A stretch of 42,328 bases of DNA from a virus, in the IMG/VR virus record IMGVR_UViG_3300042910_000004; one strand, given 5' to 3'. The notes below the pieces were generated by a model, which saw only the letters and a list, made by a program, of their open reading frames with translations, was not told the DNA's origin and ran no database searches. Shown here one piece after another: positions 751 to 39,686 of the stretch; within the stretch, counting starts at the first letter, position 1, and each line of letters begins with the position of its first letter. A program made the translations under genes and the position numbers.

Positions 751-780
751 TTTTTAATTTTTAATTTTTAATTATTGACC

Positions 781-897
781 TTAACAAAAAGGAGTGCCAA
801 AAATTTCTAAGCATTTTTCAATAGCATAATTTAAAAGTAAGCTGAAGATAAAGCCAGAAACAACAAGGAAGCCCAAAAATAAAACACTTTTAAGCAT
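781..897 (-). CDS. Small hydrophobic peptide (38 aa, MLKSVLFLGFLVVSGFIFSLLL...)
   Basis: Hand-translated ATG-to-TAA ORF with one predicted TM stretch. Its stop is embedded in the next junction cassette. Confidence 0.35.
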   Translation of the reverse strand: MLKSVLFLGFLVVSGFIFSLLLNYAIEKCLEIFGTPFC

Positions 898-901
898 TTT
901 T

Positions 902-979
902 TTATTTTGAGAGCCACCAAAGCCACAACAACACCAGCCCGACAATTAATAAATCTTCAAAGTTCATATTGGCCCTCAT
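902..979 (-). CDS. Small hydrophobic peptide (25 aa, MRANMNFEDLLIVGLVLLWLWWLSK)
   Basis: Hand-translated ORF directly after AAGGTCGAAAATTAAAAA cassette (cgacc at 991-995). Confidence 0.3.
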   Translation of the reverse strand: MRANMNFEDLLIVGLVLLWLWWLSK

Positions 980-1075
980 TTTTTAATTTTCGACCTTGAA
1001 AGAGACCCCACCCCTGCCTCCCTAATTCTTTTAGTGTCCTTTCTCTTCAACATAAATTTTTTAAACCCTACTCAC

Positions 1076-1105
1076 ATTATACCATACAACCCACCAACCC
1101 GTCAA
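1076..1105 (-). promoter_or_regulatory. Sigma70-type promoter TTGACG-N18-TGgTATAAT
   Basis: Reverse complement of 1071-1110 reads gtggaTTGACGggttggtgggttgtaTGgTATAATgtgag. Confidence 0.6.
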
Positions 1106-1242
1106 TCCACACTTCAAAACATAAAAATTTAATCCTGAAGCTTTACTTCTAAATTAGTTCAGTTTAATTTAGTTCAGTTCAATCAAAGAAAATTTTAGAG
1201 AGCAAAGCAAAGAAAAAAATTGATAAAAGATAAATTATGATA

Positions 1243-1851
1243 TCATTCATTTTTTACGACCTTACTATAAATAGCCTCACCATTAGAAAAAATACCATCT
1301 AATTGATAAACATCTACAATTTCTCCAAATATTTTTTCTAATTTTTTAGTTTCTTTATCTACGATTTTCATAATCTCATCATATACTTTAGAACAATTTT
1401 TAACAAGATACTTACCTATATAATAATCTACTGGATGTTTATCAGTATTACCCTCATACACAAAACCATCTTTTAAATAACAACCATAATCTTTAATATC
1501 TTTATCTGTTAGTTCTCCACTCTTAAAATAACTTCCATCTTCTAAAATAAAATCCCAATCCCAATCTAAATTTATCCCTTCATAATAACCAATTCTAACA
1601 ATAACATATATTCTTAAAGAACCCCACCCTATTTTATCTTTACCATAATAAAAACCAATATCTTTTCTTGCTATTACAAAAGCATCTTTTTCAATCCACT
1701 CTCGCCATCCCTGTTTATCAGAGAAGACATAACCAATTTTTTCTAATTCCGACCCTAAATTTAAATAAAAATACTCATATTCAATTTCAGTTTGACCGAT
1801 AAAAACATAATAAAATGAAGCATTTTTCTTATAAAAATTACAAGTAGCCAT
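1243..1851 (-). CDS. Hypothetical protein (202 aa)
   Basis: Long ORF with AT-rich codon usage like its neighbours; cassette upstream (cgacc 1876-1880). Confidence 0.7.
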   Translation of the reverse strand: MATCNFYKKNASFYYVFIGQTEIEYEYFYLNLGSELEKIGYVFSDKQGWREWIEKDAFVIARKDIGFYYGKDKIGWGSLRIYVIVRIGYYEGINLDWDWDFILEDGSYFKSGELTDKDIKDYGCYLKDGFVYEGNTDKHPVDYYIGKYLVKNCSKVYDEIMKIVDKETKKLEKIFGEIVDVYQLDGIFSNGEAIYSKVVKNE

Positions 1852-1871
1852 TTTTCATTTTTCATTTTTAA

Positions 1872-2081
1872 TTAACGACCACAATTAACACACAAAATTT
1901 TTCTAATATCTTTTAATGTTTTTACTTCATCAACCCACACACCATTACAAAAACCAAAATCATCTTCAGTTATCTTTTTTGCTTTTTTAAAAGCCTCTTC
2001 GCTGTTTTTAGCCATAACTAAAAAAACATAATAAGGAGCATTTTTGATAACTCTTGCCATTACTAAATAAAGTTTTTTCAT
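1872..2081 (-). CDS. Hypothetical protein (69 aa)
   Basis: ORF in the same-strand gene array; cassette-like upstream sequence. Confidence 0.55.
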   Translation of the reverse strand: MKKLYLVMARVIKNAPYYVFLVMAKNSEEAFKKAKKITEDDFGFCNGVWVDEVKTLKDIRKILCVNCGR

Positions 2082-2111
2082 TCTTAATTTTTAATTTTTT
2101 AATAACCGACA

Positions 2112-2396
2112 TTAAAATAAATTTTTAATTTCATCTGGTAAATCAACTTTAGAAAGACATTCAGAACAATAAAAACCATCTATTTCGCTATTTATTTCAA
2201 TATCACCAGCATCCCAAGTTTCTCCAGTTTTAACATTAAAATTCCATAAATAAGCAGTAGTATAAACATCAATAACGCCATAAGACCTTTTACCACAATG
2301 AGGACAAATAAAATAATCATTTCCCCATTTTTCAACCTTTTTTGCTTTTAGCCTTCTAAATTCATCTTTTTCATTAACTTTTGCTGGATAGTTCAT
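2112..2396 (-). CDS. Zinc-ribbon protein (94 aa)
   Basis: CPHCGK ... CSEC cysteine pairs; cassette AAGGTCATTATTAACAATTAAAAATTAAAAATG upstream. Confidence 0.6.
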   Translation of the reverse strand: MNYPAKVNEKDEFRRLKAKKVEKWGNDYFICPHCGKRSYGVIDVYTTAYLWNFNVKTGETWDAGDIEINSEIDGFYCSECLSKVDLPDEIKNLF

Positions 2397-2432
2397 TTTT
2401 AATTTTTAATTGTTAATAATGACCTTAAAATT

Positions 2433-2648: not shown

Positions 2649-2694
2649 TTTTCGTTTAATTTTTAATTATCGACCTTTTAATTTTTCTAAACCA

Positions 2695-2723
2695 ATTATA
2701 TCAAAACATTAAAGAAATTTCAA
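2695..2723 (-). promoter_or_regulatory. Sigma70-type promoter TTGAAA-N17-TATAAT
   Basis: Minus strand reads TTGAAAtttctttaatgttttgaTATAATtgg. It lies just downstream of the RNase H terminator. Confidence 0.6.
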
Positions 2724-2759
2724 CTTCAACCTTTCAAACTTAATTTTTGAAAACAATTT

Positions 2760-2797
2760 CAAAAATGCTCTAAATTAGATCAGTTTAAATTAGAGCA
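2760..2797 (-). terminator. Rho-independent terminator after the RNase H gene
   Basis: Minus strand reads TGCTCTAATTTaaactgatctAATTTAGAGCAttttt: an 11-bp stem with one mismatch, then a T-run. Confidence 0.55.
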
Positions 2798-2806
2798 GTT
2801 CAACAA

Positions 2807-3672: not shown

Positions 3673-4107
3673 TTAAATTCCATTTTTAATGTTCTTTTTT
3701 AATACGACCTTTAATTTGTTAGGCATAATTTTTTCTAAAGTTTCATCATCTGCTCCCATTTCTTTGTAAAACTCATACAAATGATGACAAACTTTACCAA
3801 CTTTTCTTGCTGATTTATAACCTAAACAGGTGCACCTCAATCTTCCATCTCTCGTGTAGTAAAAAATTATGTGTTTTTTGTTGATAATTTCACTTAAAAA
3901 TTCTTCTTTGTCTTTCCAACCATATCTTTTTTTAATTTCAGGTGAAATATTGTCCCACATCGGCTCATAAATTTTTCTTCTAAATTCTTTCGTTTCATTT
4001 GACGGCTCAACCTCCTTAAGAATAACTTTGTAAATTCTGAAATTTTTGAGTAAGTTTTTCCAATCAACTAATGATTTATACATTGTTTTTAGATTTCCCC
4101 AATCCAT
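3673..4107 (-). CDS. SWIM zinc-finger protein
   Basis: CTCLGYKSARKVGKVCHH fits the CxCxnCxH SWIM pattern. Confidence 0.65.
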   Translation of the reverse strand: MDWGNLKTMYKSLVDWKNLLKNFRIYKVILKEVEPSNETKEFRRKIYEPMWDNISPEIKKRYGWKDKEEFLSEIINKKHIIFYYTRDGRLRCTCLGYKSARKVGKVCHHLYEFYKEMGADDETLEKIMPNKLKVVLKKNIKNGI

Positions 4108-5135
4108 CTATAGGTAACATATTTGCCTTTCTTTTCTGACCTTATTTTACCTTCCTCTTTGTATTCACGAATAACAACTTGGAACAAGGTTAAGGACAAA
4201 CCTAAACTTTTTGCAAGTTGAAGAGCCTCTTCTCTTGATAAAGCAAAATCATCTTCATTTTTAATTGCTGACTCAAATTCTTTTTTGAACTTTTCTTTAA
4301 GTGTTTGTGAAATGGAGTAGTCTATACAGGTTATGTTTTCCCAATCTGTAAAATCAAACTTTAGATTTTTGATTTCTGGGCCAAATCTGTTTTTGTCTTG
4401 GCTTAACATAATTTCAAAACCATCTTTGCCCATAATTCTGATAATGGTATAGACCATATCAGCAGAAGCCCCAATATCTGAAGAACCTCGAGAATAAAGA
4501 GATTTAGGTTTTTTGAAAATTTCTTTCTCATTGTTTTCGTAAGTTGAGCCTTTACTCCAATGATGGGTGAAAATGAAAGTTATTCCTTGATTACTAAAGT
4601 ATTTCCTAATGTTTTCGGTTAAGCGTCTGATATCAGAAGATTTGTTTTCATCGCCTTTGAAAAATTTTCTTAGTGGGTCAACGACTAAAATGTTAAAACC
4701 TCGTTTTTTTAGAAGATAGGATAGTTGTGCTATTTGGATATCATCATCTAAAAATATCGTTTCATTGCCATAATAGAAATTTTCATTCTGAAAGTTCAAA
4801 AGTTTCAATTTTTCGCCTATAACTTCTTTAGGGTCTTCTCCTAAATAGCAAATCTTGTAATTGCCAGGGAAAACCCTGAAATGATAAAATTGGCCTTCCA
4901 AAATAAGTTTGCAAAAATAAAGAAGTAAGGTTGTTTTTCCTGAAGCATAAAAACCTGAAAAAAGATTTATACCATTCCTGGCAATTATGTTTTCGACAAT
5001 AAATTTCTCCTCTGGATTAAAAGAAAGTCTCTTTAACTCTTCAGCATTTAAAAATTTTTCAACAATTTCATCGACTTCTTTGGCTTTTTCTATTGGACTT
5101 TTTGCTATGTCTTCTAATCTTCTGAAATCAGACAT
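4089..5135 (-). CDS. RecA-like P-loop ATPase (AAA_25/RepA-DnaB-like), probable replicative helicase
   Basis: Walker A GFYASGKT, Walker B ILVVDPL, FIFTHHWSK. Adjacent to the primase-type zinc-finger gene. Confidence 0.7.
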   Translation of the reverse strand: MSDFRRLEDIAKSPIEKAKEVDEIVEKFLNAEELKRLSFNPEEKFIVENIIARNGINLFSGFYASGKTTLLLYFCKLILEGQFYHFRVFPGNYKICYLGEDPKEVIGEKLKLLNFQNENFYYGNETIFLDDDIQIAQLSYLLKKRGFNILVVDPLRKFFKGDENKSSDIRRLTENIRKYFSNQGITFIFTHHWSKGSTYENNEKEIFKKPKSLYSRGSSDIGASADMVYTIIRIMGKDGFEIMLSQDKNRFGPEIKNLKFDFTDWENITCIDYSISQTLKEKFKKEFESAIKNEDDFALSREEALQLAKSLGLSLTLFQVVIREYKEEGKIRSEKKGKYVTYRWIGEI

Positions 5136-5907: not shown

Positions 5908-5916
5908 TATGATAAC

Positions 5917-5945
5917 ATTATAAACGTTTTGAAAGAAAATGTCAA
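5917..5945 (-). promoter_or_regulatory. Consensus sigma70 promoter TTGACA-N17-TATAAT (leftward early)
   Basis: Minus strand reads TTGACAttttctttcaaaacgttTATAATgttatcataATG; only 9 nt lie between the -10 box and the ATG. Confidence 0.75.
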
Positions 5946-6280: not shown

Positions 6281-6310
6281 TTGACAATCAACCATTCAGT
6301 ATGTTATAAT
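6281..6310 (+). promoter_or_regulatory. Sigma70 promoter TTGACA-N18-TGtTATAAT (rightward early)
   Basis: ttgacaatcaaccattcagtatgttataat. Confidence 0.7.
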
Positions 6311-6330: not shown

Positions 6331-6358
6331 AAGGTCGATAATTAAAAAAGACAAAATA
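6331..6358 (+). promoter_or_regulatory. Representative gene-start junction cassette AAGGTCGATAATTAAAAAAGACAAAATA-ATG
   Basis: One of more than 20 similar cassettes. This one lies inside the predicted 5' UTR downstream of the 6281-6310 promoter. Confidence 0.6.
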
Positions 6359-6595
6359 ATGGGAAACGAAACTTATCTTGGTTTGTTTGAAATTGCTAAA
6401 AGGCTAAACATTACTAAAAATCAAGCAAAATGGTTTGCTAGAAGGTATATCAACGAAATTAGATTTCAAAAAAGAAACATAAAAGACAAACTTTACAACT
6501 TTGAAGACTTTAAAAGGGTCGTAGAAGAAAGAAAAAAACATTGGCAACTTAAAACAGAGTCGTTATTAAAGAAGAACAAAAAAAATGGCCTATAA
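6359..6595 (+). CDS. Small HTH DNA-binding protein (78 aa)
   Basis: Start moved to the ATG after the cassette. LFEIAKRLNITKNQAKWFARR is helix-turn-helix-like. First gene of the rightward operon. Confidence 0.55.
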   Translation: MGNETYLGLFEIAKRLNITKNQAKWFARRYINEIRFQKRNIKDKLYNFEDFKRVVEERKKHWQLKTESLLKKNKKNGL

Positions 6596-6911: not shown

Positions 6912-6946
6912 TCAATAGGTCAAAATTAAACATTAAAAATGAAAAA

Positions 6947-7318: not shown

Positions 7319-7599
7319 AAGAAAGAGCAAAAAGAAAGGAGCAGCAAATTCAAAAACTCCATTATTCGAAGGAAAGACAAGTTATCAAAACATCAATTTT
7401 CAATCAAGCGCAAGAATGGGCTAGACTTCAAGCAGAGCTTGGTCTTCCTGACGATGAAATTGAAAGGCTCATCAAAAAATGGCTTAAAAAACTTTACTAC
7501 GAATACAAACTATGGGATGAAGAATTTGACGAACTTTACTTTCAAAACATCAAAGAAAAAAAAGAAAGGTCAGAATTAAAAAACAAAAATGAAAAATGA
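7288..7599 (+). CDS. Hypothetical protein (103 aa)
   Basis: ORF in an operon, overlapping its neighbours. Confidence 0.5.
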   Translation: MDNQYSWEQIEERAKRKEQQIQKLHYSKERQVIKTSIFNQAQEWARLQAELGLPDDEIERLIKKWLKKLYYEYKLWDEEFDELYFQNIKEKKERSELKNKNEK

Positions 7600-8039
7600 A
7601 AGATGAAAAATTCGAAAAAATCTATGACTTTATAGACGAAGTTATGGATGTCACTGATGATTTGATTGACAAATGGATACTCGATTGGGAAATTGCTGTT
7701 GATTACGAAGCCAGAGAAGAAGTTGAAAAAGAATATGGAATGCCTTGGTGGAAAGTTTTAAGCGGAGACGATGATTATAATCCAGAAAATAACGACGAAG
7801 AAAATGAAAAAATTGTTGAACTTAAAGATTGGAATGATAAGAATTTTAGGTATTTTAAGGTTGTTCCTTCTGAAAAATCTAAATTAGAATTAGGTCTTCC
7901 TAATGATTTTTACTACATCGTTATTGTTGATTTGAAAAGAAATAAGATATCTTGCGATTGTTTGGGTAATTTAACAAATGGTTATTGCAAACATATCCAA
8001 ATGGTCGCAGAAAAATTAAAAATTAATTATCGAAAATGA
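7596..8039 (+). CDS. SWIM zinc-finger protein
   Basis: CDCLGNLTNGYCKH fits the CxCxnCxH pattern. Confidence 0.65.
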   Translation: MKDEKFEKIYDFIDEVMDVTDDLIDKWILDWEIAVDYEAREEVEKEYGMPWWKVLSGDDDYNPENNDEENEKIVELKDWNDKNFRYFKVVPSEKSKLELGLPNDFYYIVIVDLKRNKISCDCLGNLTNGYCKHIQMVAEKLKINYRK

Positions 8040-8869: not shown

Positions 8870-8921
8870 TAAAAACCAATGTTAAAATTAAAAAAGTCGG
8901 CATTAAGGTCAATCCTTAAAA

Positions 8922-11350: not shown

Positions 11351-11485
11351 GTTAATAACTTGTTAATTCAAGTTAAAAAATCCTTTTAAAATCTATATTT
11401 TTTGAAAATGTCAAATTTTTAAAAAATTTTGAAAAACTTTTTAAAAATTTAAATAGGTCGGAAATTAATCAATTAAAAATGAAAA

Positions 11486-11692
11486 ATGAAAAATATTTGT
11501 AAGTTTTGTAAAAGTGAGTTTTCAACTGAAAAACCACAAAAAGACTTCATATGCTTTGAATGTTTATCAATGGGAGCAGACAAGGATTTATTCACATATC
11601 TCAAAAATCGGGCAATGAGACTTATGGCAAAAATTGATTGGAAAATAGACGAAATTAAAGAAGTCGTAGATAATTTTCTAAAAAATGAATAA
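11486..11692 (+). CDS. Zinc-ribbon protein (68 aa)
   Basis: CKFCKSEF ... CFEC; cassette upstream (ggtcg 11456-11460). Confidence 0.55.
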   Translation: MKNICKFCKSEFSTEKPQKDFICFECLSMGADKDLFTYLKNRAMRLMAKIDWKIDEIKEVVDNFLKNE

Positions 11693-12611: not shown

Positions 12612-12639
12612 TTTTTAGATTTTTTTAATCAACGACCTT

Positions 12640-12792: not shown

Positions 12793-14910
12793 TTATCGAC
12801 CAAAAATTTCATTAAATTTTTTAATCGTATTCAAATCTGCTGTTCCAGTTACTAATAACCCATAATTTTTTTGAAAATCTCTAACGGCTTGACGGGTAAT
12901 GCCTCCATAATAGCCCGTACACTCTTGATTAGCAGGAAAATATCCTAACCATTGAAGACCAATTTGAAGTTTTACTACTTCTGATCCTCTATCTCCTACA
13001 TTGAGATAATTAGCATTTATAAACATCTTTGGTTTATTAATCTTTTGAGGTTCGTATTTGAAATCAACAAGATAAACTCCCAAAACAACTCCATTTTTAA
13101 ATTGTTCTTCGTTGATAATTCCTAATCCATTAATACCCCAATCATCTCTTCCCCAAGAATTTTGAAAAATTAATGCTTTTTTGCCATTGTAAAGAGTATA
13201 ATCAGTTGCACAGTTATGTACCGCAACATTTTCTGCCATATAAGAATTATCATTTTCAACTTCCAAATTGAAAACTTTTCCGACATATTTTATTTTTTCT
13301 ATCTTTTTTATTCTTTTTAATTCACCTATTTTGTGATAAAAGTTCCTCGTTTTTATTTTATTGGCATATGGGGAAATGAGAAAATCGAATCCTCCACTAC
13401 TTTTAATTCTTCTCGTTATGTTATGGGCTGGTTTTCTATGAAAGACACTATAAACCATATTTAGTTTTTGCAAAATAAGTTGTATCTGTAATGCTAATTT
13501 TTCATCTGAAGTAAAAAGTCTCCAATAAATATTTTGATTTTTATTTCCTATTTGAATGGAACCATCTCCATCTATCCATCCTTCTAATAATGACCTTAGG
13601 ACATCTTTAGGTGAGTTAAAAATAATTCTATAATCTAATCTTTTTTTGTTGGGCCTTCCAGCAATTTTAGCAAACCAATTCGCTATTTTTGTGCTATAAA
13701 AAATAACCTGAACTGCTTTATTCCTTGGGGAATAATAAAATTTGGGTTCTAAATTAAATTTACTTTTCATTATTCGAACAACCTTCTCTATTATTTTACT
13801 ATCTTTTTCTCTATTTAAAGAAAATCTAACAGCAGCAAATCCTTTATAATACTTTCCGTTCACAAAATTCCTTTTCAGATTACCATCTGCCAAATAAAGA
13901 CCTACTAAATAAGCAATATCTTCATCAAATAAAGCATAATTTCTATCTAATTGGGTTATTGGAGAAGTAAAATTTGCCAACAAAAAGTCTTTTATTTTCA
14001 AATCTTCGGCTTTTTTCCACATAAATCCCCTTGAGATAGCATAATCCTTTCTTACATATTGAGAACCATTTATAACATAAAAAGGATGTTCTGGGGTTGC
14101 TAAAATGGGTCTTATTTGATTCTTGGCATATATTTTAAATAAATAACCCTCATAATCTCTTTCTAAAACCCTACTAACCCTTTGCCATCTTCCTTTGTGC
14201 GTTAAAACATAATCACCTGCTTTAATTTCAGTTATTTTTTTATAACCATTCTTTGTGAGAATTAATGTATCTGGATGGAAACAAATAGCATGTCCGAATA
14301 TTCCGTTTTTATCCAAAACTACTTCAGGTTTAGAAAATCCTCCTTGATTAAATCTCACCCCTAAAAGAATTCCCTTTTTTGTTTGCTCTATTATCCCAGC
14401 AATTACATCAATATCGAGTGGAAGAAAAACATAAGAATTTGCCTTATAAATTTGTGCTACCCATCTAACATTAGGAGTTTCATCATCTCTCCTTCTCATT
14501 GCGTTTTCATTTAATCCTATAGATGGCATCTGCTGTTCTAAACAGGTTCCTTCTTTTCTGGCAATTTCTAAAGCCTGTAGATAATACATTCCTCCATCTG
14601 GTTCAACATATCCACGAGAATAAATAAATCTTGCAGATAAAATCTCAAATTTCCCCTCTTCTAAATAGTTTTCTATCCCAAGAGCAAGAGCAAGTGAATG
14701 AGCAACGCAACTTCCCGATGTTGATTGGTTTCTAATTGGTTCAAATTTTCTCCATTCTGATGGTTTTTTCTCAATCCAATTAGGAGATGGATATGATTTA
14801 AAGATTTCTTCTGTGTGATAATTTCTTTCGTCAAGTTGTTCTCTTTCATCTCCAACCCATCCATAACCAAATTGCTCTTTTCTCAAAAATCTTTTGAAAA
14901 ATTTCCACAT
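12793..14910 (-). CDS. Endolysin: papain-like (C1) cysteine peptidase plus PG_binding_1 domain, interrupted by an intein
   Basis: QSTSGSCVAHS (Cys motif); GHAI (His motif); NSWGRDDWG after the intein; C-terminal GDRGSEVVKLQIGLQWLGY...ITRQAVRDFQ. Holin close by. Confidence 0.8.
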   Translation of the reverse strand: MWKFFKRFLRKEQFGYGWVGDEREQLDERNYHTEEIFKSYPSPNWIEKKPSEWRKFEPIRNQSTSGSCVAHSLALALGIENYLEEGKFEILSARFIYSRGYVEPDGGMYYLQALEIARKEGTCLEQQMPSIGLNENAMRRRDDETPNVRWVAQIYKANSYVFLPLDIDVIAGIIEQTKKGILLGVRFNQGGFSKPEVVLDKNGIFGHAICFHPDTLILTKNGYKKITEIKAGDYVLTHKGRWQRVSRVLERDYEGYLFKIYAKNQIRPILATPEHPFYVINGSQYVRKDYAISRGFMWKKAEDLKIKDFLLANFTSPITQLDRNYALFDEDIAYLVGLYLADGNLKRNFVNGKYYKGFAAVRFSLNREKDSKIIEKVVRIMKSKFNLEPKFYYSPRNKAVQVIFYSTKIANWFAKIAGRPNKKRLDYRIIFNSPKDVLRSLLEGWIDGDGSIQIGNKNQNIYWRLFTSDEKLALQIQLILQKLNMVYSVFHRKPAHNITRRIKSSGGFDFLISPYANKIKTRNFYHKIGELKRIKKIEKIKYVGKVFNLEVENDNSYMAENVAVHNCATDYTLYNGKKALIFQNSWGRDDWGINGLGIINEEQFKNGVVLGVYLVDFKYEPQKINKPKMFINANYLNVGDRGSEVVKLQIGLQWLGYFPANQECTGYYGGITRQAVRDFQKNYGLLVTGTADLNTIKKFNEIFGR
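13213..14283 (-). mobile_element. Intein with LAGLIDADG homing endonuclease (357 aa, residues 210-566 of the lysin ORF)
   Basis: Begins CFHPDTLILT, has TPEH, LVGLYLADGN and LLEGWIDGDGS, and ends NVAVHN followed by a +1 Cys. The codons at both junctions were checked on the sequence. Confidence 0.85.
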
Positions 14911-24621: not shown

Positions 24622-25794
24622 TTATCTTGTCAAAGGAGGCTTAACCCGACCAAATCTCGTAAATATTCTTTTAGGGGGATAAAAGTTTCTGGCCTTCATA
24701 TAATAAGACTGATAAAGAGAATTGATATAGGACTTATCCACGACACTTGCCCCTCTATAATGCTGTATTGCTAAAAGTGCTATTAAAGAAAGCGTAAGTT
24801 CATTCTGAATGATAAGAACATCGTCTGTATTTGTTGTGACTAAACTTTTTAGATTACCTGAATTATCTCTAACTACTAAGTTCGTATAGTATTTTACAAC
24901 TATGGGGTCATAGACTACCACCTTTATATCATCTAAGAACCAATTATTTGAACTTGTAAATGCCGATGTGTAATCTATATCAAGCTGTATATAGCTTATA
25001 TTCTCTGAATTAGGATTTCCAACTATTATAGCATCTTTCCAATTAAATTTTAAGAAATTCCAGCCAACTACAAAAGGAGAACCATCTGCTTGAGTAGTAA
25101 CGGTTGTTTTGTAATAATTGGCAGCATCAGTAGCCCAATTTAACGAAATGGAAGTTAAGTTAGTAGTTTGACGAATATAAAGCCATAGGGTAAAAGAGCC
25201 TTTGTTTTCGTATGTTTTTAAGTTCAATGAAGGTGTAAATGTTCTTCTTACGCTTGCTCTATTTAAAGCAGAAGCACCAACATCAATATCGAACTTGATT
25301 GATTTATCCCCTTCTTTCTTGAAAGCGGAGCTTGTCCCTAAATTAACAGCATCATTCAAAACACTAAATCCATCTGTATTTTCACATTTCTCAATTGACA
25401 AAGGTGGATAAACATTTTTAGTTAAGATGTAAATTTTGTTTCCTTCTAAAGAATACAAGACAGCATCTGCGGGTTTCTTGCCAAGCTTTATTAAGGTTTC
25501 GGGTGTTTCAAAAAGCCAATCTCTTCTATTATTTTCAGAAATGTATGGTTCTGATGAGTTATCGTAAGACAAACTAATCAAATAAACAAAGTCTGAAGGT
25601 AAAGAATAAACTAGTTGGTCTTCTGAGAATTCTAGGGTTATGGTTTTTGTTGAATTCTCAAAATCAAATTCTCCTATTAGAAAAGAGAGAGCACTATTAA
25701 TAGCAGAAATCTTTTGGTTTTGTTCTAGCGTTGTATCAGTTCCAGAATAACCTAAAAAATCATTGATTTTATTTAAGATTTTATCAACTGTCAT
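24622..25794 (-). CDS. Hypothetical tail-module protein (390 aa) with a jelly-roll/CBM-like middle region
   Basis: ATGA overlap with the upstream gene; beta-rich central segment. Confidence 0.6.
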   Translation of the reverse strand: MTVDKILNKINDFLGYSGTDTTLEQNQKISAINSALSFLIGEFDFENSTKTITLEFSEDQLVYSLPSDFVYLISLSYDNSSEPYISENNRRDWLFETPETLIKLGKKPADAVLYSLEGNKIYILTKNVYPPLSIEKCENTDGFSVLNDAVNLGTSSAFKKEGDKSIKFDIDVGASALNRASVRRTFTPSLNLKTYENKGSFTLWLYIRQTTNLTSISLNWATDAANYYKTTVTTQADGSPFVVGWNFLKFNWKDAIIVGNPNSENISYIQLDIDYTSAFTSSNNWFLDDIKVVVYDPIVVKYYTNLVVRDNSGNLKSLVTTNTDDVLIIQNELTLSLIALLAIQHYRGASVVDKSYINSLYQSYYMKARNFYPPKRIFTRFGRVKPPLTR

Positions 25795-27299
25795 ATTTCG
25801 TCATCATAGGTAATAATGACCTTTTTGAAAAGAAATGGTTCTTGATTAGAGGAACCTCTATAAGAAAATTTGAGTTTAAACTTTGAAGCTACTAAACCTA
25901 TATTTTCTATCCTTTGATACCCACTTTGCGTTATTGAAGGAAGGTCCAATGTGCCTCTTTCTCTTGTTTTTTCTCTCATAAATTCTATTGAAGCAGTTAT
26001 AGTTCTCCCCGCTAAATTTTCCGTAAAAACCTCTATTGAATGTATTTTAACATAGTTTGAGTTATTTAAATTAAGCCAATTAGTTTCAACATAAAAATCT
26101 TCATTTAAAGTTCCAGTTCGAAAACTATATAAATAGTTGCTCACGTCTAATATATCCATCATAATTCTGGTTCCAGCATCATTCAAATAGAAAATTAGCA
26201 ATTGGTCTTTTAGTGCAAAAGCATAATAAGCAGAAACATCATTAGTATTGGTTGTGTTTCTTTTAGGGTCAATTTCAACAATTAAATCGTCTTCTGGATA
26301 CCATAAAATTACGCCTTTAGCATTTGAACTGACGGAAGAATAAAATGTAGGAATAACAATGAAATTTTGACCCGCACTTATAGAAGAAAGAGGATGATTC
26401 TCAACGCCGATCAAATCTCTAGTAACTCTTAGATTTTGAATTCTTCTAACAAATTTTAGTCCCGATGGAGAAAAGGCATATATGTCGGTATTTTGTATAT
26501 CGTCAAAAAACAAGTATGTTATTCCGTTATAAAGGACATTCCCTCTTAACTCCTTATTAAATTGCAACCTATGAAAATAAATATTTAGCCAATTTCCATC
26601 CCATAGATAAATTCTTCTTGGTGGCTCAAATGAATTTTTGTTTATCACAACTATTCCTAAATAAGAATCATTGAGGTTGATTAAAGCATAAACACCTTCA
26701 GTAACTGCCAAATTCAAAGTTCCAACCGTGCTTGAAAAATCTGGTGCTAAAACTTGTATTCTATTGTCGTTAGGAGAAGCAATATACCAATAATTTTTCC
26801 AAAACATAAAAACACGAGGATTGTTAATGATAATTGTTCCCGCAGGAGTAAAATTTAGAAGACCGCTTAAATTATCTTCGTTTTTCCAAAAAATTTGATT
26901 TTGTGTTCTTGAAAAACCAGCAATCCTGTTATTACCAGCATCAAGCATATGATAATTACTACCAGAATCACCAAAACTACCTATGCTTCCCAAAAAACTA
27001 TTATCAGTTATGCCCAAAACTTTTGCAGTATTGGTTTCTACATACAAGCGATAAGGATCGTATTTAGAATAAGCAAAACGAACTATTTTGTTACCACTAA
27101 CAGATGTAGATGCTATTTCAGTAGACGAATACTTAGCATTTGCTAAAGAAACATAGCCACCCTCAAAATTCCTATTGGAACCAATCATAGGAACACCCCT
27201 CAAATGCCTATACAAATTTTGATTACCAGAAAGAACAATTTCATAATCCCACCCAGTTCTTTCTACAAAATTAGTTAAAGTTAAAGTTTTTAACGCCAT
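25791..27299 (-). CDS. Hypothetical tail-module protein (502 aa)
   Basis: Long beta-rich ORF in the late operon. Confidence 0.65.
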   Translation of the reverse strand: MALKTLTLTNFVERTGWDYEIVLSGNQNLYRHLRGVPMIGSNRNFEGGYVSLANAKYSSTEIASTSVSGNKIVRFAYSKYDPYRLYVETNTAKVLGITDNSFLGSIGSFGDSGSNYHMLDAGNNRIAGFSRTQNQIFWKNEDNLSGLLNFTPAGTIIINNPRVFMFWKNYWYIASPNDNRIQVLAPDFSSTVGTLNLAVTEGVYALINLNDSYLGIVVINKNSFEPPRRIYLWDGNWLNIYFHRLQFNKELRGNVLYNGITYLFFDDIQNTDIYAFSPSGLKFVRRIQNLRVTRDLIGVENHPLSSISAGQNFIVIPTFYSSVSSNAKGVILWYPEDDLIVEIDPKRNTTNTNDVSAYYAFALKDQLLIFYLNDAGTRIMMDILDVSNYLYSFRTGTLNEDFYVETNWLNLNNSNYVKIHSIEVFTENLAGRTITASIEFMREKTRERGTLDLPSITQSGYQRIENIGLVASKFKLKFSYRGSSNQEPFLFKKVIITYDDEI

Positions 27300-27300
27300 T

Positions 27301-27921: not shown

Positions 27922-27999
27922 GAATGGCGAGATTCTAGAGGCAATTTTTTAATTGCGACCTTTAAATTGTTTTAAAAACCCCTTTAAAAACTATGAAAA

Positions 28000-31814: not shown

Positions 31815-32056
31815 TATTCAGAAACCTCCTCAGAAACGACCTCTTGTTTTTTGGAAGGCCTTCCCCTCTTAGGTTTTTCCTCAGAATGTTCTTCTTCCTC
31901 TTCCTCTTCTTCCAAAACTAATTGAACTTTGCCAGGATAAGAAACCAGAACCCTTGAAAGTTGTGGTTCTTCTAAATCAACAACTTCTCCAGGTTCAATT
32001 ATAATGCCAAAGTATGGTTCTATAATTCTTTCTCCTGAAATATTTTTAACTTTCAT
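31814..32056 (-). CDS. Small protein with a poly-Glu tract and a KPKRGRPSKK AT-hook-like motif (80 aa)
   Basis: Start moved to the ATG 22 nt after the AAGGTCG cassette (cgacc 32077-32081). Confidence 0.55.
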   Translation of the reverse strand: MKVKNISGERIIEPYFGIIIEPGEVVDLEEPQLSRVLVSYPGKVQLVLEEEEEEEEHSEEKPKRGRPSKKQEVVSEEVSE

Positions 32057-32089
32057 TTTTTGATAAATGATAAACACGACCTTATTTTA

Positions 32090-33148: not shown

Positions 33149-33185
33149 CGATTGAGAATTATAAGTTAATTAAGACCTAAAAATT

Positions 33186-33671: not shown

Positions 33672-33700
33672 TTTTAGATTTTAGAGAATAACGACCAAAT

Positions 33701-34674: not shown

Positions 34675-34892
34675 TATTTCTTTTTCTTTTTCTTGCGACC
34701 CGCTTTACCTACTCCATATTTACCATAAGCAATTGCAGCGGCTATTTTTTGTGCGTGTTCCAAGCTTCTGGGCTTATATTCTGCTCTGCTAGTTGTCATC
34801 TTCCCTGTTTCTTTGTATTCCCTTAATAAAGTCTGTATTTCCTTGCTTATTTTTTTCTGTTTTTCTTTGGAAGTTTTTCTTTTTTTAGCCAT
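34674..34892 (-). CDS. Highly basic small protein (72 aa) ending in a poly-Lys run
   Basis: Start moved to the ATG at 34892, 23 nt after the GGTCG cassette (cgacc 34914-34918). Confidence 0.55.
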   Translation of the reverse strand: MAKKRKTSKEKQKKISKEIQTLLREYKETGKMTTSRAEYKPRSLEHAQKIAAAIAYGKYGVGKAGRKKKKKK

Positions 34893-35298
34893 TTTGATTT
34901 TGTTGATTAAGGACGACCATCTTTTTGAGCTCCTTCTTGATTTGCGAAACATCAGGAATTGTTTCCTTTTCCTTTGTAACAAACTGCTTACTTTCTGGAG
35001 TTTTTTCAATAAGCTTTTTTATAATTTCCCACTCGGTCACAATAGCACGAAGTTCTGAAGTATGTTTATCATCGAGCCAAGATTGTTTAAGTAAGAAATT
35101 TTGCCTTGAAGTTATCCACTTAACCAATAAAGGTTCTCTCTGAGCTATCCTTCTCCATAATTCTTCGGTTTCTTTGGCATCAAACTTCATACCCTCATCA
35201 TCAAAATATGTAGAAATCCTTTTATCGATTAATTCCTTCTCAATTTCTTTATCAATAAGTAGTCTGATAAGAAATTTTTTAAATTGTTTCAGCCACAT
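34885..35298 (-). CDS. Hypothetical protein (137 aa)
   Basis: ORF between the portal and the basic proteins. Confidence 0.6.
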   Translation of the reverse strand: MWLKQFKKFLIRLLIDKEIEKELIDKRISTYFDDEGMKFDAKETEELWRRIAQREPLLVKWITSRQNFLLKQSWLDDKHTSELRAIVTEWEIIKKLIEKTPESKQFVTKEKETIPDVSQIKKELKKMVVLNQQNQNG

Positions 35299-37294: not shown

Positions 37295-37583
37295 TTATTT
37301 CAATTCCGTGTTTAAATCCTGGCTTAAACCTTGTTCTTTGCCAAGTTTTTTCCAAATGGTATGCCAATGAAGGAGCTTTTATAACAATAAGCCTTCTTTT
37401 AATTTCATCGATAATAATTGGAAGTTTTTGAAAAACTTCTTCAGAACTTTCAAATGTGTATGTTCCAATTATCACATTATTTCTGTAAAAAGTCAATTGT
37501 TTGTTTTCAGGATACCAAGAAGCACCAATTTTCCCGTCTAATTGTTGAACTCTTGAAACTAAATATCTAATAGCGCTTAGCAT
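37284..37583 (-). CDS. Hypothetical protein (99 aa)
   Basis: Start moved to an internal ATG to reduce the overlap with TerL. Confidence 0.45.
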   Translation of the reverse strand: MLSAIRYLVSRVQQLDGKIGASWYPENKQLTFYRNNVIIGTYTFESSEEVFQKLPIIIDEIKRRLIVIKAPSLAYHLEKTWQRTRFKPGFKHGIEINGK

Positions 37584-39150
37584 AAGTTGTAACCTTAGGG
37601 CCTCCCAATGTATTGCCCTTGAAAAATACATCGAAACCCAAACAAAACATTTCGTGCGCTGACCTTAAATCTGCTTCAGGAGATATATGTAATGGAACTA
37701 TTTTCCCATCAGTTGTGCCCTTTAAAGTCCTTTCTGAAATTTTTGCTGACTTGAGAGCATCTAAAAGTCTTAAAGAACCGCTATCATTAGCATTGAACTT
37801 TGTAATCTTTAAATACTTTTGAACTGCTCGCTTTCTAATTTCGTGTGAAGTTCCTATGTTAACTATGAGGAAGTTAATGCCATTTTTTCTTAATATTGTT
37901 TCAAATGAGTATCCTGCTACTTGTGAAACTTGCCTATGCGCTGGTTCTCCAAAAACTATTTTAGGCTTACCCCAACTTCTCACTTTTTCCAAAAATTCTC
38001 TTTCATACTCATTATACCACATCTTATCATAGGGAATTTCTGGATTTAAAAATGGGAGCCACCAATCTATAAGAAGTTTGTTTGGCATCAATCTTCCGTG
38101 GGCTGCAATAGCAGTAAGGTTTCTAATTTCGTTTTTCAGTGGGTCATATTGGTACCAGCATAAAGCAGTGTAGTCCTGAAAACCAGCAAAGTCTGCTGAA
38201 GCATAAAGTGGCAATTTAGGGTCAAATTCTATTGGTTCTACTTGACATTCATAGGCTTCTGGATAATATCTTAATTTTGGGTCTACATCGTAAGAAAGTT
38301 CTAATTCTGCTAAAAATGATAATGGGTCTTCTTTTCTTAACTCAAATTCCTTTCTATACCATTCTTCATCCTTAAACGGATGCTGTTTCCAGTGTAGGGT
38401 CAAAACTTTGTTTTGTTCCCTCAAATTATCAACAAATCTTTTGAGGAACTGATTTTCTGTTGGAGTTGAGATATAAATCTTAACTTTTGATGTGTCTTGG
38501 CAACTTCTCAAACTTTCTTCCAAATATGGCCAATAGGCTAATTCATCCATTATGACTACTGAAGTTCTATGACCTCGCCCAAAGTTAGGATTAGCACTTT
38601 CTCCATATAATACGCTCCCATTTTCGGGGTTGATTAACTTCATATGATTGTCGTGAAACTTTTTCTTAAAGTTTTTAGGGAAAAGCCATCTCGGTTGAGC
38701 GTAAATAAGATATCTTATCTTCCCAAAAATGCTTGAAATTGCTTTGTTATCAACTTCTGCTTCCTTTCTCGAACCTATTAATGCTGAAAATTTATCAGTA
38801 AAAAGCCAATGATAAACTAACCAATGAACGATAGTCCAAGTAACTCCCATATCCCTTGATTTTTCAATGTAGAGAACATCGCCATCATAAAATGTTTTTT
38901 CGAGCCTGTAAATCAGGTCTGCTTGATAGTCGAAAGGAACAAAAATAATATCTGGTTCCTGAATGTTTCTTGGTTCATAAACCCAACCACAAATTTCTAT
39001 CCATTTATAGATGTTTTTCTGAAATTCCCTGTAAAGATAAACTCTTGCTTCATAAGAAAGTTCAGCAGTTTTCAAAAGTTCAAATCTTGTGTCTATGTAT
39101 TTTTGATACTCATCTGATTTGAGAAATTCCTGAAGTTTTTCGAGGTTCAT
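37567..39150 (-). CDS. terL: Terminase large subunit
   Basis: 527 aa; Walker-A-like IEKSRDMGVTW, Walker B SVVIMDELAYW, C-terminal nuclease-like half. Confidence 0.8.
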   Translation of the reverse strand: MNLEKLQEFLKSDEYQKYIDTRFELLKTAELSYEARVYLYREFQKNIYKWIEICGWVYEPRNIQEPDIIFVPFDYQADLIYRLEKTFYDGDVLYIEKSRDMGVTWTIVHWLVYHWLFTDKFSALIGSRKEAEVDNKAISSIFGKIRYLIYAQPRWLFPKNFKKKFHDNHMKLINPENGSVLYGESANPNFGRGHRTSVVIMDELAYWPYLEESLRSCQDTSKVKIYISTPTENQFLKRFVDNLREQNKVLTLHWKQHPFKDEEWYRKEFELRKEDPLSFLAELELSYDVDPKLRYYPEAYECQVEPIEFDPKLPLYASADFAGFQDYTALCWYQYDPLKNEIRNLTAIAAHGRLMPNKLLIDWWLPFLNPEIPYDKMWYNEYEREFLEKVRSWGKPKIVFGEPAHRQVSQVAGYSFETILRKNGINFLIVNIGTSHEIRKRAVQKYLKITKFNANDSGSLRLLDALKSAKISERTLKGTTDGKIVPLHISPEADLRSAHEMFCLGFDVFFKGNTLGGPKVTTYAKRY

Positions 39151-39181
39151 TAATTATTTGCTTTTCCTTTGCTTATATCTT

Positions 39182-39221
39182 CCCATTTGACGTTACTCCT
39201 TCTAACATACTTTAGCAAAAA
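39182..39221. repeat. Decayed copy of the 3' end of gene 39648-40340 (33/40 identical to 39647-39686)
   Basis: cccatttgacgttactccttctaacatactttagcaaaaa compared with cctatttaacattactccttctgacatattttaataaaaa. Confidence 0.8.
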
Positions 39222-39252
39222 TATTTCTGTAATTTTTTTTAGGTTCGTTTAT

Positions 39253-39624
39253 TTAGAAAGTTGACCTTCTTATTTTCTCTCTTATCTTTGATTTCAAAGA
39301 TCTTTTGTTAAGCCACTTAATAAAATCTTCCTCAGTATCAAAAACCTTAAACTTTCGTTTTTCTTGAAACAATGGGTCTGCCCAATCCATAATTTTCCTA
39401 TAAGGAAGCCCTTTTTCCCCACCTCCACTTGTCAAAATTTCATAATAATGCACTCCTTTATATGGTGCTCTAAAACCTAATTTAACTCCTTTTTTACTTT
39501 CAATACCTATAAATTTGCCCTCTAGCAAATGTTTTGTTGCTTCTTCAGGTGTTAATGTTCTTCCAAATCTTCTTAAGCCTTTCCTAAATAAAGTGCCAAT
39601 TTTTTTAAATGGTAATTTTGGCAT
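39253..39624 (-). CDS. Hypothetical basic protein (123 aa), apparently inserted between terS-position gene and terL
   Basis: Bracketed by the roughly 40-bp direct repeats at 39182-39221 and 39647-39686. Confidence 0.6.
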   Translation of the reverse strand: MPKLPFKKIGTLFRKGLRRFGRTLTPEEATKHLLEGKFIGIESKKGVKLGFRAPYKGVHYYEILTSGGGEKGLPYRKIMDWADPLFQEKRKFKVFDTEEDFIKWLNKRSLKSKIREKIRRSTF

Positions 39625-39646
39625 TTATAAAAAAAATTAATTGCGA

Positions 39647-39686
39647 CCTATTTAACATTACTCCTTCTGACATATTTTAATAAAAA
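39647..39686. repeat. Partner of the 39182-39221 direct repeat (functional 3' end of gene 39648-40340)
   Basis: See the aligned 40-mers. Confidence 0.8.

Follow-up and report, generated by a model that had tools for sequence, protein, structure and literature searches.

A GGTC-centred motif preceding start codons in a low-GC phage and its relatives as a possible RNA-level element of translation initiation

The DNA analysed here, referred to as the window, is a 42,328-nt stretch from a virus (IMG/VR virus record IMGVR_UViG_3300042910_000004). This phage is uncultured and has a low GC content, and about half of its genes carry a short sequence motif, as do about half of those in distant relatives. 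The conserved core of the motif is aaa-[G/A]GTC-[G>A,T], also written aaa-RGTC-K, and r(AAAGGUCGUU) is an RNA sequence that contains it. An earlier note on the same DNA described a longer cassette, of which the core is upheld by comparison with relatives, but the ATTAA(A) half is confined to the window lineage and the contig L023 and is missing from the other relatives.

Minus-strand copies near the left end comprise GGTCA at 776..780, 30 nt before the ATG of gene 520-750 (whole cassette GGTCAATAATTAAAAATTAAAAATTAAAAAATG), GGTCG at 1876..1880 (29 nt before gene 1243-1851), the variant TGTCG at 2107..2111 (30 nt, gene 1872-2081), GGTCA at 2420..2424 (28 nt, gene 2112-2396) and GGTCG at 2671..2675 (27 nt, gene 2433-2648), all distances being counted to the ATG. 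The junction in the relative L006 that is orthologous to 1876..1880 retains GGTCG within a wholly different 5' flank. GGTCA at 4137..4141 (minus strand, 34 nt, gene 3673-4107) is a doubtful copy, and its L006 counterpart is GGTCC. Two further minus-strand GGTCG cores precede micro-ORFs, one at 991..995 lying 16 nt before the ATG of a 25-aa hydrophobic product (902-979) and one at 3705..3709 lying 26 nt before that of a 20-aa product (3621-3683).

Plus-strand copies start with GGTCG at 6333..6337 (26 nt, gene 6359-6595) and continue with AGTCG at 6558..6562 (27 nt, gene 6585-6911; within the upstream ORF, GGTCG in L006), GGTCA at 6918..6922 (29 nt, gene 6947-7318; lost in L006, which has GGGCG), GGTCA at 7568..7572 (28 nt, gene 7596-8039; within ORF 7288-7599, AGTCG in L006) and GGTCG at 8003..8007 (33 nt, gene 8036-8713; within the upstream ORF). 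Gene 8922-9374 has both AGTCG at 8895..8899, 27 nt before its ATG, and a second copy, GGTCA, at 8907-8911. Past a terminator at 11323-11344, the first gene (11486-11692) is preceded at 30 nt by GGTCG at 11456..11460, and the next (11685-12026) at 23 nt by AGTCG at 11662..11666, within the upstream ORF.

The remaining copies are again on the minus strand. GGTCG at 12633..12637 stands 26 nt before the holin-like gene 12300-12611, and GGTCG at 12797..12801, within the final part of the endolysin ORF, stands 27 nt before a 44-aa ORF (12640-12774). Three cores lie within upstream ORFs at 23640..23644 (GGTCA without the ATTAA block, 30 nt, gene 22553-23614), 24647..24651 (GGTCG, 31 nt, gene 23619-24620) and 25817..25821 (GGTCA, 27 nt, gene 24622-25794; AGTCG in L012). 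Among the genes around the capsid gene, GGTCG occurs at 31837..31841 (27 nt, gene 31350-31814; within the upstream ORF) and, directly past the hairpin behind the capsid gene, at 32077..32081 (25 nt, gene 31814-32056), where L002 and L011 have GGTCG at an unchanged distance despite strong divergence of the flanks. The major capsid gene itself (32135-33148) has GGTCT at 33173..33177, 29 nt before its ATG, a variant kept in L001 and L002. GGTCG follows at 33692..33696 (25 nt, gene 33186-33671), at 34696..34700 (26 nt, gene 34435-34674; within the upstream ORF), at 34914..34918 (26 nt before the ATG at 34892; within ORF 34885-35298 and kept in L001, L002, L019 and L022) and at 39644..39648 (24 nt, gene 39253-39624), where the upstream stop codon, TAG, overlaps the first G. 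AGTCT at 40362..40366 (26 nt, gene 39648-40340) is a weak variant. Two orphan copies complete the set, also on the minus strand: GGTCAATTATTAAC at 456..460, which stands past the final gene of the leftward early operon with no ORF behind it and directly followed by a terminator hairpin (433-414), and GGTCGCAATTAAAAAATTGC at 27956..27960, which has no ORF within 100 nt and is kept in L001.

All 16 core coordinates named in the earlier note are GGTCR on the strand given there, but 27956-27960 lacks an ORF, and 3705-3709 and 991-995 have micro-ORFs only. Absent from that list were the sites at 2420, 8003, 23640, 24647, 25817, 31837 and 34696 and the AGTCG, GGTCT and TGTCG-type variants at 2107, 6558, 8895, 11662, 33173 and 40362. 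In 26 of 55 genes the motif RGTC[G/A/T] begins 23-34 nt upstream of the ATG, with a mode of 26-27 nt; the spacing of 21-26 nt given earlier counts only the bases that separate the 5-mer from the start codon. Given a chance of 0.035 for one match per gene in a 17-nt window, a rate taken from CDS bodies, the binomial tail is 1.7e-23, which confirms the observation at a greater strength than the earlier note gave it. Relative to dinucleotide shuffles within strand blocks, GGTCG occurs 25 times in sense and twice in antisense orientation (6.1 and 5.8 expected), and GGTCR-N0-4-ATTAA 16 times in sense and never in antisense (0.69 and 0.45 expected; maximum in any shuffle, 5), while AGGTC and GGTCG are the top 5-mers in an unbiased count over -40 to -11.

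Conservation among relatives follows the core. At orthologous junctions the core is retained and the flanks have diverged, with G/A swaps at positions 1 and 5 and an invariant GTC. The motif is the top unbiased 5-mer in L010 and in L013-L016, and recurs at the same distance in relatives whose capsid and terminase proteins are only 57-60% and 42-44% identical, respectively, where it precedes non-homologous early genes. In IMGVR 3300026509_000003, aaaaaGGTCG precedes the ATG of almost every early gene by 21-25 nt, and the 68-kb contig L023, which is unrelated, has the motif as well. It was not found in the relatives L007 and L008 (40% and 45.5% GC), whose TerL and portal proteins, at 44-50% identity, are as close as those of the low-GC relatives; these genomes have TGnTATAAT 6-8 nt before the ATG, which points to leaderless starts in place of the motif.

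Shine-Dalgarno cores (AGGA, GGAG or GAGG in -20..-4) occur in 6 of 54 genes of the window, compared with 13.8% of random CDS windows, and are no commoner than background. Two of these six genes belong to the GC-rich island and another encodes a KH-domain protein; gene 31350-31814 has a GAGGAGG site in addition to the motif. The two promoters that the note described upstream of the motif are confirmed as predicted sigma70-type promoters, and the layout recurs in relatives. TTGACA-18-TATAAT with a TG extension (12/12) at 6281..6310 on the plus strand places the motif at 6333..6337 22 nt downstream of its -10, and TTGAAA-17-TATAAT with a TG extension (11/12) at 2695..2723 on the minus strand places that at 2671..2675 19 nt downstream. 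The near-leaderless primase-domain gene 5128-5907 lacks the motif, and its promoter (TTGACA-17-TATAAT, 12/12; 5917..5945, minus strand) ends 9 nt before the ATG.

These arrangements bear on whether the motif acts in DNA or in RNA. Across 13 promoter-proximal cases drawn from the window, L010, L016, L017, L019 and L023, the gap from -10 to motif spans 9-22 nt (mean 15.2, SD 4.6) and that from motif to ATG 21-31 nt (SD 2.3); the motif is thus locked to the start codon and not to the predicted promoter, downstream of which it lies. At 10 of 22 coupled junctions the upstream ORF runs over the core before it ends, in frames 0, 1 and 2 (p~1e-9), and the core is kept there under coding constraint. 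The looser promoter spacing, an information content confined to one block of some 10 nt with no -35-like second block, the embedded copies, the background level of Shine-Dalgarno cores and the sharing of the motif by early, lysis and structural genes speak for an RNA-level role, and a single-block, -10-like phage promoter for a modified polymerase is improbable. Other observations weigh against an RNA element: gene 11486, behind its strong terminator, has no recognisable sigma70 promoter before the motif, and in L036 and L029 a sigma70 promoter ending 8 nt upstream of the ATG has the motif within its spacer, so that the motif would be absent from that transcript. On balance we favour an RNA-level role, as the earlier note did, on a wholly geometric argument. 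That note also offered an RNA processing site, which we consider very unlikely, since cleavage at the embedded copies would remove the stop codon of the upstream gene. Its suggestion of re-initiation through a stop codon within the motif is unsupported; only some five copies (776, 2420, 4137, 32077 and 39644) have a stop directly next to or overlapping the core, fewer than the note's "often" implies. A stop is rarely part of the core, and stops just happen to lie within the A-rich 5' flank.

We therefore put at about one half the probability that the cassette acts in cis at the RNA level, in connection with translation initiation. The motif would be a single-stranded mRNA signal, aaa-RGUC-K, to which the window lineage adds AUUAA(A) and a tract rich in A/U, and would form part of the initiation region of mRNAs without Shine-Dalgarno sites, in 5' UTRs and at cistron junctions. 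Its reader may be a sequence-specific RNA-binding factor that sits immediately beyond the 30S footprint and promotes or gates the loading of ribosomes onto the unstructured, A/U-rich leader. The two orphan copies with no gene behind them argue against a role in initiation, as does the distance, because to our knowledge 21-31 nt upstream is beyond the specificity-conferring reach of any known bacterial ribosome-mRNA contact. In agreement with the earlier note, no description of the element was found in the literature searched, Rfam or PHROGs.

The leading candidate for the reading factor, one that the note had already raised, would be the phage's own KhpA-like type II KH-domain protein (85 aa; 40359..40616, minus strand). 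It matches Pfam PF13083 at 36.4 bits (cut-off 32.1), its AlphaFold model (pLDDT 91) has an alpha-beta-beta-alpha-alpha-beta fold with Foldseek matches to uS3-KH, KhpB and Era, and the GXXG glycines of the KH proteins are invariant. KH genes are present in all motif-bearing lineages, in L023 at a different genomic position, and none was found in L007 and L008 (21 of 48 kb covered). The link is imperfect: L020 and L021 have a KH protein (55% identity) with the motif absent at 14 junctions of structural genes, more distant KH-bearing contigs have the motif at 0/14 to 3/12 genes, and the KH gene of L016 has a GGTCT copy upstream. Alternatively, the reader would be a host factor, either a ribosome component or host KhpA/KhpB. 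As regards the phage KH protein, its gene in the window is preceded by TTGACA-17-TATAAT-10 nt-ATG without the motif, and 9 of 10 KH-gene upstream sequences examined have TTGAC(A/T)-17/18-TATAAT, 5-17 nt to the ATG and no motif. With a usually near-leaderless, motif-free mRNA and a consensus promoter, this protein could be the first to be produced, by the host machinery without any aid. The site of a KH domain spans four nucleotides, and KhpA occurs in both homo- and heterodimers (PMC11261784); about 4 nt per domain together with dimerisation would fit a bipartite GGUC plus AUUA site.

The window represents a tailed-phage genome of approximately 33% GC, consisting of a 42,043-bp unit and a 285-nt exact terminal repeat. 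Genes are oriented leftward in 1-6200, rightward in 6201-12150, leftward in 12151-40640 and rightward beyond. The recognized products cover structure and packaging (terminase, a portal-sized protein, capsid (PF25209) and tail proteins), replication and modification (primase/helicase, RNase H and a DNA methylase), lysis (an intein-containing endolysin with a PG_binding_1 domain) and RNA binding (an 85-aa KH-domain protein). No tRNA genes were found in the window, and Rfam 15 gave 0 matches to it at gathering score. No close cultured relatives were identified by DNA, MCP or portal; TerL matches among cultured phages reach only ~30% identity and are to phages of unrelated hosts. A scan of genome contigs for a host link returned only an Aenigmatarchaeota MAG contig, apparently mis-binned, and the homologues of the island protein (from the island described below) were all located on phage-like contigs in the host search. 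A hot-spring or Aquificae host is our guess from the sample context and the leaderless expression pattern (PMC3160421).

Several other features of this genome were recorded. The exact 285-nt direct repeat at the two ends (1-285 and 42044-42328) is either a circular-assembly overlap or else a genuine direct terminal repeat. Between the early operons, the divergent control region of 190 nt (6010-6200) holds four copies of TGTGTAATTG, one mismatched and one inverted, which could be operators or iterons, and AGCGAGCCA occurs three times at a spacing of exactly 36 nt (8753-8833; 0.03 copies expected in the whole window) within the 208-nt gap ahead of gene 8922-9374. The island at 9749-11344 (41% GC) contains two genes, for a metallophosphatase and an unknown protein, and carries canonical Shine-Dalgarno (SD) sites as well as a strong terminator. 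Several other phage-size contigs, including L023, have homologues that share the AAGGAG site, and the island appears to be a mobile module that retains its own SD-type translation signals. The 705-aa endolysin (12793-14910, minus strand) combines a papain-like peptidase with PG_binding_1 and is split by a Hint/LAGLIDADG intein, whereas its L023 homologue (67-70% identical, 347 aa) is free of the insert; LAGLIDADG inserts also occur in the terminase genes of the related contigs L022 (888 aa) and L020. Very small hydrophobic ORFs of 23-38 aa lie in the leftward early region (902-979, 781-897 and 1180-1250, minus strand), some with an upstream copy of the motif considered below. Tandem AAAAATG units end the leaders at 1851-1875, 6939-6949, 7590-7605 and 11476-11488, placing out-of-frame ATGs a few bases ahead of the annotated start, an odd arrangement for accurate start choice.

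An earlier note on this DNA had proposed that a GGTC(G/A) cassette precedes genes on both strands in place of SD sites. Every coordinate that it listed reads GGTCR on the strand concerned, and the core is clearly enriched upstream of starts, with GGTCG occurring 25 times in the sense and twice in the antisense orientation versus 6.1 and 5.8 expected from shuffles preserving dinucleotides and strand blocks. The longer form GGTCR-N0-4-ATTAA occurs 16 times in sense and 0 times in antisense (0.69 and 0.45 expected from the same shuffles). The proposed start-codon spacing was borne out as well: in a simple gene model, 26 of 55 genes have a core whose first base precedes the ATG by 23-34 nt (mode 26-27), for which a chance rate of 0.035 per gene gives a tail probability of 1.7e-23. 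Among 5-mers counted without bias over -40 to -11, AGGTC, ATTAA and GGTCG ranked first. SD cores, described in the note as essentially absent outside the island, were present at 6/54 genes, not exceeding the 13.8% of random coding windows; two of the six genes lie in the 41%-GC island (9749-11324) and one encodes the KH protein.

Other parts of that description required revision. The GTC core is real, but the ATTAA(A) half is lineage-specific, and the conserved core is better written aaa-[G/A]GTC-[G>A,T] (RNA forms of the cassette, r(AAAAGGUCGAUAAUUAAAAA) and r(UAAAGGUCGUUAAAUA)). Most of the listed copies are credible gene signals, but those at 27956, 3705 and 991 precede no gene or only a micro-ORF, and the upstream stop codon, thought to be often part of the motif, abuts or overlaps the core at only ~5 sites. 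When sites are aligned on the core, the information is confined to a single block of ~10 nt; between -40 and -4, counted from the core, it is ~0 throughout, and the stretch where a -35 element would sit shows no conservation. The core starts 21-34 nt upstream, leaving about 16-29 nt between core and ATG, and the genes that carry it span the early (776-12026), lysis (12633 and 12797) and structural (23640-39644) classes. In 22 genes the start codon is separated from the upstream stop by no more than 4 nt or overlaps it. Of these, 10 have a core at -19 to -35 (p~1e-9), and these ten cores fall inside the upstream ORF, within its last 8-10 codons and in all three reading frames, so that selection acts on the nucleotides rather than on a peptide. 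Unpaired probability is 0.42 for the core and 0.60 for its flanks; this lower accessibility is the expectation for G/C in an AU-rich context and is uninformative.

Two copies on the minus strand stand apart from genes. That at 456-460 follows the last gene of its operon and is directly followed by a terminator (433-414), and that at 27956-27960, which is kept in the close relative L001, precedes 100 nt of non-coding sequence containing a hairpin. In all lineages the major capsid gene is followed by a GC-rich hairpin that lacks a U-tract and stands just upstream of the next motif copy (32082-32115, minus strand, in the window; also in L010, L014 and L016), a layout typical of differential mRNA stabilization.

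Relatives were gathered through TerL, capsid and KH-protein similarity. They comprise close relatives with 90-98% capsid identity (contigs L001/L006/L012, L002, L011, L019 and L022), distant low-GC relatives with 57-60% capsid, 42-44% TerL and ~45% portal identity (L010, L013, L014/L017/L018, L015 and L016), and two higher-GC relatives, L007 and L008 (40% and 45.5% GC), with 54-55% capsid and 48-50% TerL identity. The core keeps its distance at orthologous junctions, including those where neither flank is recognizable any longer (31814-32056 versus L002 and L011; 1243-1851 versus L006), and the changes within it are G/A swaps at positions 1 and 5, with GTC constant. The early genes of the distant low-GC relatives are non-homologous to those of the window, yet tAAAGGTCGTt is their top enriched word, 20-27 nt before the ATG. 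In IMGVR 3300026509_000003, aaaaaGGTCG lies 21-25 nt before the ATG of almost every early gene, and the 68-kb L023, a different phage sharing few mosaic genes with the window, carries RGTCG-N1-3-ATTAA 19-28 nt before its starts. The motif is absent from L007 and L008, though their divergence in TerL and portal does not exceed that of the low-GC group; many of their ATGs are preceded at 6-8 nt by TGnTATAAT, which is a leaderless-gene signature (PMC3160421). In the contigs L036 (~5930-5980) and L029 (~4420-4472), GGTCGTAATTA lies within the 17-nt spacer of a TTGAC(T/A)...TATAAT promoter ending 8 nt before the ATG, and the homologous site of L031 reads GGCCG. One close relative, L011 (JAVVFY010000014.1; 96% capsid identity to the window phage), is filed at NCBI under a 'Candidatus Aenigmatarchaeota' MAG and is probably a mis-binned phage contig, in view of the bacterial-type promoters and the peptidoglycan-binding endolysin of the window.

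Consensus sigma70 promoters are present in the window at 6281-6310, 5945-5917, 2723-2695 and 1105-1076, and upstream of the KH gene. The motif is distinct from these: it lacks two hexamers 16-18 bp apart, and the true sigma70 promoters are separate and upstream of it. In 13 cases from six genomes, the core is preceded at 9-22 nt (mean 15.2, SD 4.6) by TATAAT, usually in the form TGnTATAAT, and in the same 13 genes the distance from core to ATG has an SD of 2.3. The larger variance on the promoter side indicates that the motif is tied to the start codon and not to the promoter, and it is predicted to begin at +3 to +16 of transcripts from the upstream sigma70 promoters. For the primase-domain gene (promoter 5917-5945, ATG 5907) and the KH gene (promoter ~40620-40660, ATG 40616), the promoters end only 9-10 nt before the ATG. 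Leaderless or near-leaderless mRNAs are widely used by this phage group.

Several further interpretations were considered and rejected. Expression of the Bacteroidetes type (SD-less, with -33 TTG / -7 TAnnTTTG) is ruled out, as is such a host, by perfect TTGACA-17/18-TATAAT promoters in the control regions of the window and by consensus sigma70 promoters at the KH genes of nearly every lineage examined. An archaeal BRE/TATA reading, prompted by the Aenigmatarchaeota MAG match, would place transcription starts within genes, and the bacterial promoters and the PG_binding_1 domain of the endolysin also speak against it. As a -35 element or MotA-box-like activator site, the motif is too near the ATG, such that transcription would start inside the gene; its genes are not leaderless, since by inspection TAnnnT is absent at -12 to -7. 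The core also resembles, in the same sense, the tRNA variable-loop/T-arm sequence AAGGUCGUC and the 16S sequence AAGUCGUAACAAGG, similarities that suggest no mechanism.

A candidate protein to read the motif is the 85-aa product of the KH gene (40359-40616, minus strand). It matches PF13083 (KhpA/KhpB) with 36.4 bits against a cut-off of 32.1 and belongs to no PHROG family. The predicted structure (pLDDT 91.4) has the alpha-beta-beta-alpha-alpha-beta order of a type II KH domain, with modeled elements H4-19, E24-30, E33-39, H42-49, H51-71 and E75-79. The GXXG loop falls between the two central helices, its G50 and G53 being invariant, and Foldseek matched the model with the KH domain of uS3, KhpB (3gku and 9lrg) and Era. 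An HMM of the homologues located a KH gene just upstream of the terminase genes in every motif-bearing lineage; in L023 it occupies another position, beside the endolysin, and in L007/L008 none was found by HMM within the 21 kb examined of contigs of 48 kb. The KH gene itself has no motif in 9 of 10 upstream sequences examined, and instead carries TTGAC(A/T)-17/18-TATAAT ending 5-17 nt before the ATG, a distance that makes it near-leaderless; the L016 gene is preceded by a GGTCT copy. A near-leaderless, motif-free gene is the arrangement expected of a factor made before motif-dependent expression.

The binding site of a KH domain spans four nucleotides, and proteins of the KhpA type dimerize (PMC11261784), properties that would fit a short, sometimes bipartite, single-stranded site. 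Co-occurrence with the motif supports the KH protein as candidate reader, albeit imperfectly. Contigs L020 and L021 encode a KH protein and lack the motif at 14 structural-gene junctions, and more distant KH-bearing contigs have it at 0/14 to 3/12 genes. Widening of the KH set via two sub-alignments gave 12 further short contigs, with mixed motif use; the combined KH alignment contained no block conserved enough to widen the set. The position beside the terminase genes would also fit a packaging role. A link between protein and motif is, on present indications, possible but doubtful.

A different interpretation places the motif at the level of transcription, as a single -10-like block, aaaGGTCGtt, read by host RNA polymerase together with a phage-encoded or phage-modified specificity factor; leaders would then be AU-rich and 12-20 nt long, and the start-codon register would reflect a preference for short leaders. 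A contiguous, oriented motif before many genes recalls T7-like or T4 late promoters, and the -10 elements to which it may be likened are the GTC of ECF-type -10 boxes and the T4 late TATAAATA. At six early window sites GGTC is followed by -10-like (G/A)ATAAT, GAAAAT or GTTAAT, at two of them with a -35-like hexamer at 16-18 nt (6315-6342 and 800-771). Gene 11486 comes after a strong terminator, and no other promoter was found for it; a short RNA could arise from the orphan copy at 456-460 and its terminator, and the spacer copy in L036/L029 suits a reading at the DNA level. However, a second conserved block is absent, sequence after the core is not -10-like in distant relatives, and strong sigma70 promoters lie directly upstream, at distances that vary. 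Scans of ~40 window proteins with Pfam or PHROGs, many proteins being unannotated, including two of ~1000 aa, detected no RNA polymerase or sigma-like protein. Phage promoters are usually class-specific, whereas early, lysis and structural genes all use the motif, and 26 copies are packed into 42 kb, many at operon junctions of 0-30 nt and 10 within ORF ends. A signal acting at every cistron fits better than a promoter with the single block, the use by all classes, the short intra-operon junctions and the lack of a detected polymerase or sigma factor, and we consider the promoter explanation unlikely. Far less probable still is a DNA site unrelated to per-gene expression, whether a regulator operator, a primase site or a module-exchange linker. 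The L036/L029 spacer copy would be compatible with such a site, as would the placement around small, poorly conserved early genes in the manner of the PeSL cassettes of T4-type phages and the encoding of a primase by the window phage, GTC being the T7 primase trinucleotide and GGGTC/TGGTC the sequences recognized by T7-type primases. Yet the motif is non-palindromic, always faces the same way with respect to its gene and keeps a fixed register with the ATG; its ORF-internal copies are kept in three reading frames; the core persists while both flanks diverge, although recombination linkers need longer identity; and hardly any copies fall within the 6 kb of 16435-22551, a region in which lagging-strand priming would still be required. 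Primase recognition in particular was rejected on the ATG register and the sparseness of the motif in long genes.

At the RNA level, two further possibilities compete with a protein-read initiation signal. The motif could be a processing or stability site, with a host or phage endoribonuclease cutting at or near RGUCK, or a bound factor blocking 5'-3' decay, such that polycistronic RNA is converted into units with a defined 5' leader of ~25 nt. Its placement at gene junctions, the several copies directly after U-tract-less hairpins behind the capsid gene (window, L010, L014 and L016) and the orphan copy at an operon 3' end would all be accommodated. Cleavage at the ten copies in the last 8-10 codons of upstream ORFs would instead generate non-stop mRNAs, neither the inverted repeat of an RNase III-type hairpin nor the GGAG of a RegB site is present at the motif, and elsewhere in sense coding sequence the motif is not depleted (~8 non-start GGTCG versus ~6 expected); processing is consequently rated as distinctly improbable. 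We place at a similarly low level the proposal that the motif is an unusual SD equivalent that docks the 30S subunit by pairing with host rRNA, through a divergent 16S 3' tail or another exposed segment. The motif occupies the place left by the lacking SD, pairing is possible between AAAGG and the CCUUU end of the canonical tail, and a U in the rRNA would tolerate the observed G/A alternation at positions 1 and 5, although the T at position 5 of GGTCT is unfit for such pairing. Presence of the motif tracks genome GC, and so presumably the host, more than phage relatedness, and in L007 AAAGGAGG and AAAGGTGT occur at the same unusual distance. With the canonical tail, which may not be that of the host, RNAduplex gives -5.5 to -6.1 kcal/mol for the motif; a real SD reaches -19.3, and the shuffled motif -3.2 +/- 1.6. 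The gap of 16-26 nt between core and AUG is two to three times too long, SD sites lying 5-13 nt upstream of the start codon (PMC3160421); conservation of the anti-SD core throughout the prokaryotes has been reported (PMC10783764); and the genes of the GC-rich island have normal SDs at normal spacing.

Overall, the motif works most like a ribosome-binding or translational-operator element, and we rate it as a cis element of the translation-initiation region. No published description of it was found, and a literature search on the motif or on phage KH proteins returned nothing relevant. As a specific model, to which we assign a probability of roughly 0.2, we propose an SD-less phage clade with its own initiation code, in which the KH protein binds aaaRGUCK ~25 nt before the AUG and recruits or licenses ribosomes. 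The KH protein would be made first, from its near-leaderless and motif-free mRNA, and would then bind aaaRGUCK on about half of the phage mRNAs; once bound, it might recruit or license host ribosomes, providing a virus-specified, protein-mediated substitute for SD:anti-SD pairing. For the question of how start codons are chosen on SD-less bacterial mRNAs, which are the majority in several phyla, the motif offers a concrete, mutable test element, as it is sharply defined, non-SD, start-locked and kept across divergent phages and within coding sequence. If read by the KH protein, it would represent the first case of a phage supplying a sequence-specific initiation factor for most of its own genes, and a portable translation control module. 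Should it instead prove to act as a promoter or as a signal to the host ribosome, it would nonetheless expose the expression code, aid host assignment for an uncultured phage group and improve the prediction of gene starts in these genomes.

The motif can be compared with several known systems. Similar to an SD site, it is a short sense-strand motif before first and internal starts, has constrained spacing and may sit in the preceding ORF. It differs in that it is not complementary to the anti-SD core (CCUCC in the canonical tail, which may not be the host's), in its distance from the AUG (16-26 nt versus 5-13) and in its invariant GTC, which is without counterpart in GGAGG. The AU-rich S1-dependent enhancers and A-rich 'Kozak-like' leaders of SD-poor bacteria share the A/U-rich, unstructured tract between core and AUG and the absence of an SD, but these are compositional, whereas the motif has a specific G/C-containing core with an invariant GTC at a fixed distance. 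T7-like 23-mers, T4 late promoters and PeSL cassettes are likewise repeated oriented consensus sequences, especially before small early genes; in contrast to such single-block phage promoters, the motif lies downstream of host-type promoters, serves all temporal classes and is ATG-locked, and a phage polymerase or sigma was not found. The phage KH protein resembles KhpA/KhpB in its match to PF13083, its type II fold, its intact GXXG and a single-domain size like that of KhpA, but it is phage-encoded and outside the PHROG families, and it is a candidate only for binding the motif; for cellular KhpA/B we know of no such defined target motif. In phage T4, the RNA-binding protein RegA and the nuclease RegB act on the initiation regions of many phage mRNAs, RegA sites overlapping the AUG and repressing, and RegB cutting GGAG within SD sites. 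The likeness is one of logic, in that one small phage protein could read a recurring RNA motif at dozens of genes; the motif has another sequence, its core leaves at least 16 nt free ahead of the AUG and so, unlike a RegA-type operator, stays outside the ribosome footprint on the upstream side, and the candidate protein has a KH fold. Chloroplast PPR proteins such as PPR10 leave footprints ~25 nt upstream of starts in intercistronic regions, and caliciviruses have TURBS motifs. These, too, are protein- or rRNA-bound sites ~20-30 nt before an AUG at junctions that define or activate downstream translation, although they are eukaryotic or organellar, involve unrelated proteins and sequences, and serve as analogies only. 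By analogy, then, the nearest counterparts of the motif would be the protein-bound sites ~25 nt before chloroplast starts and the many-target RNA-binding proteins of T4.
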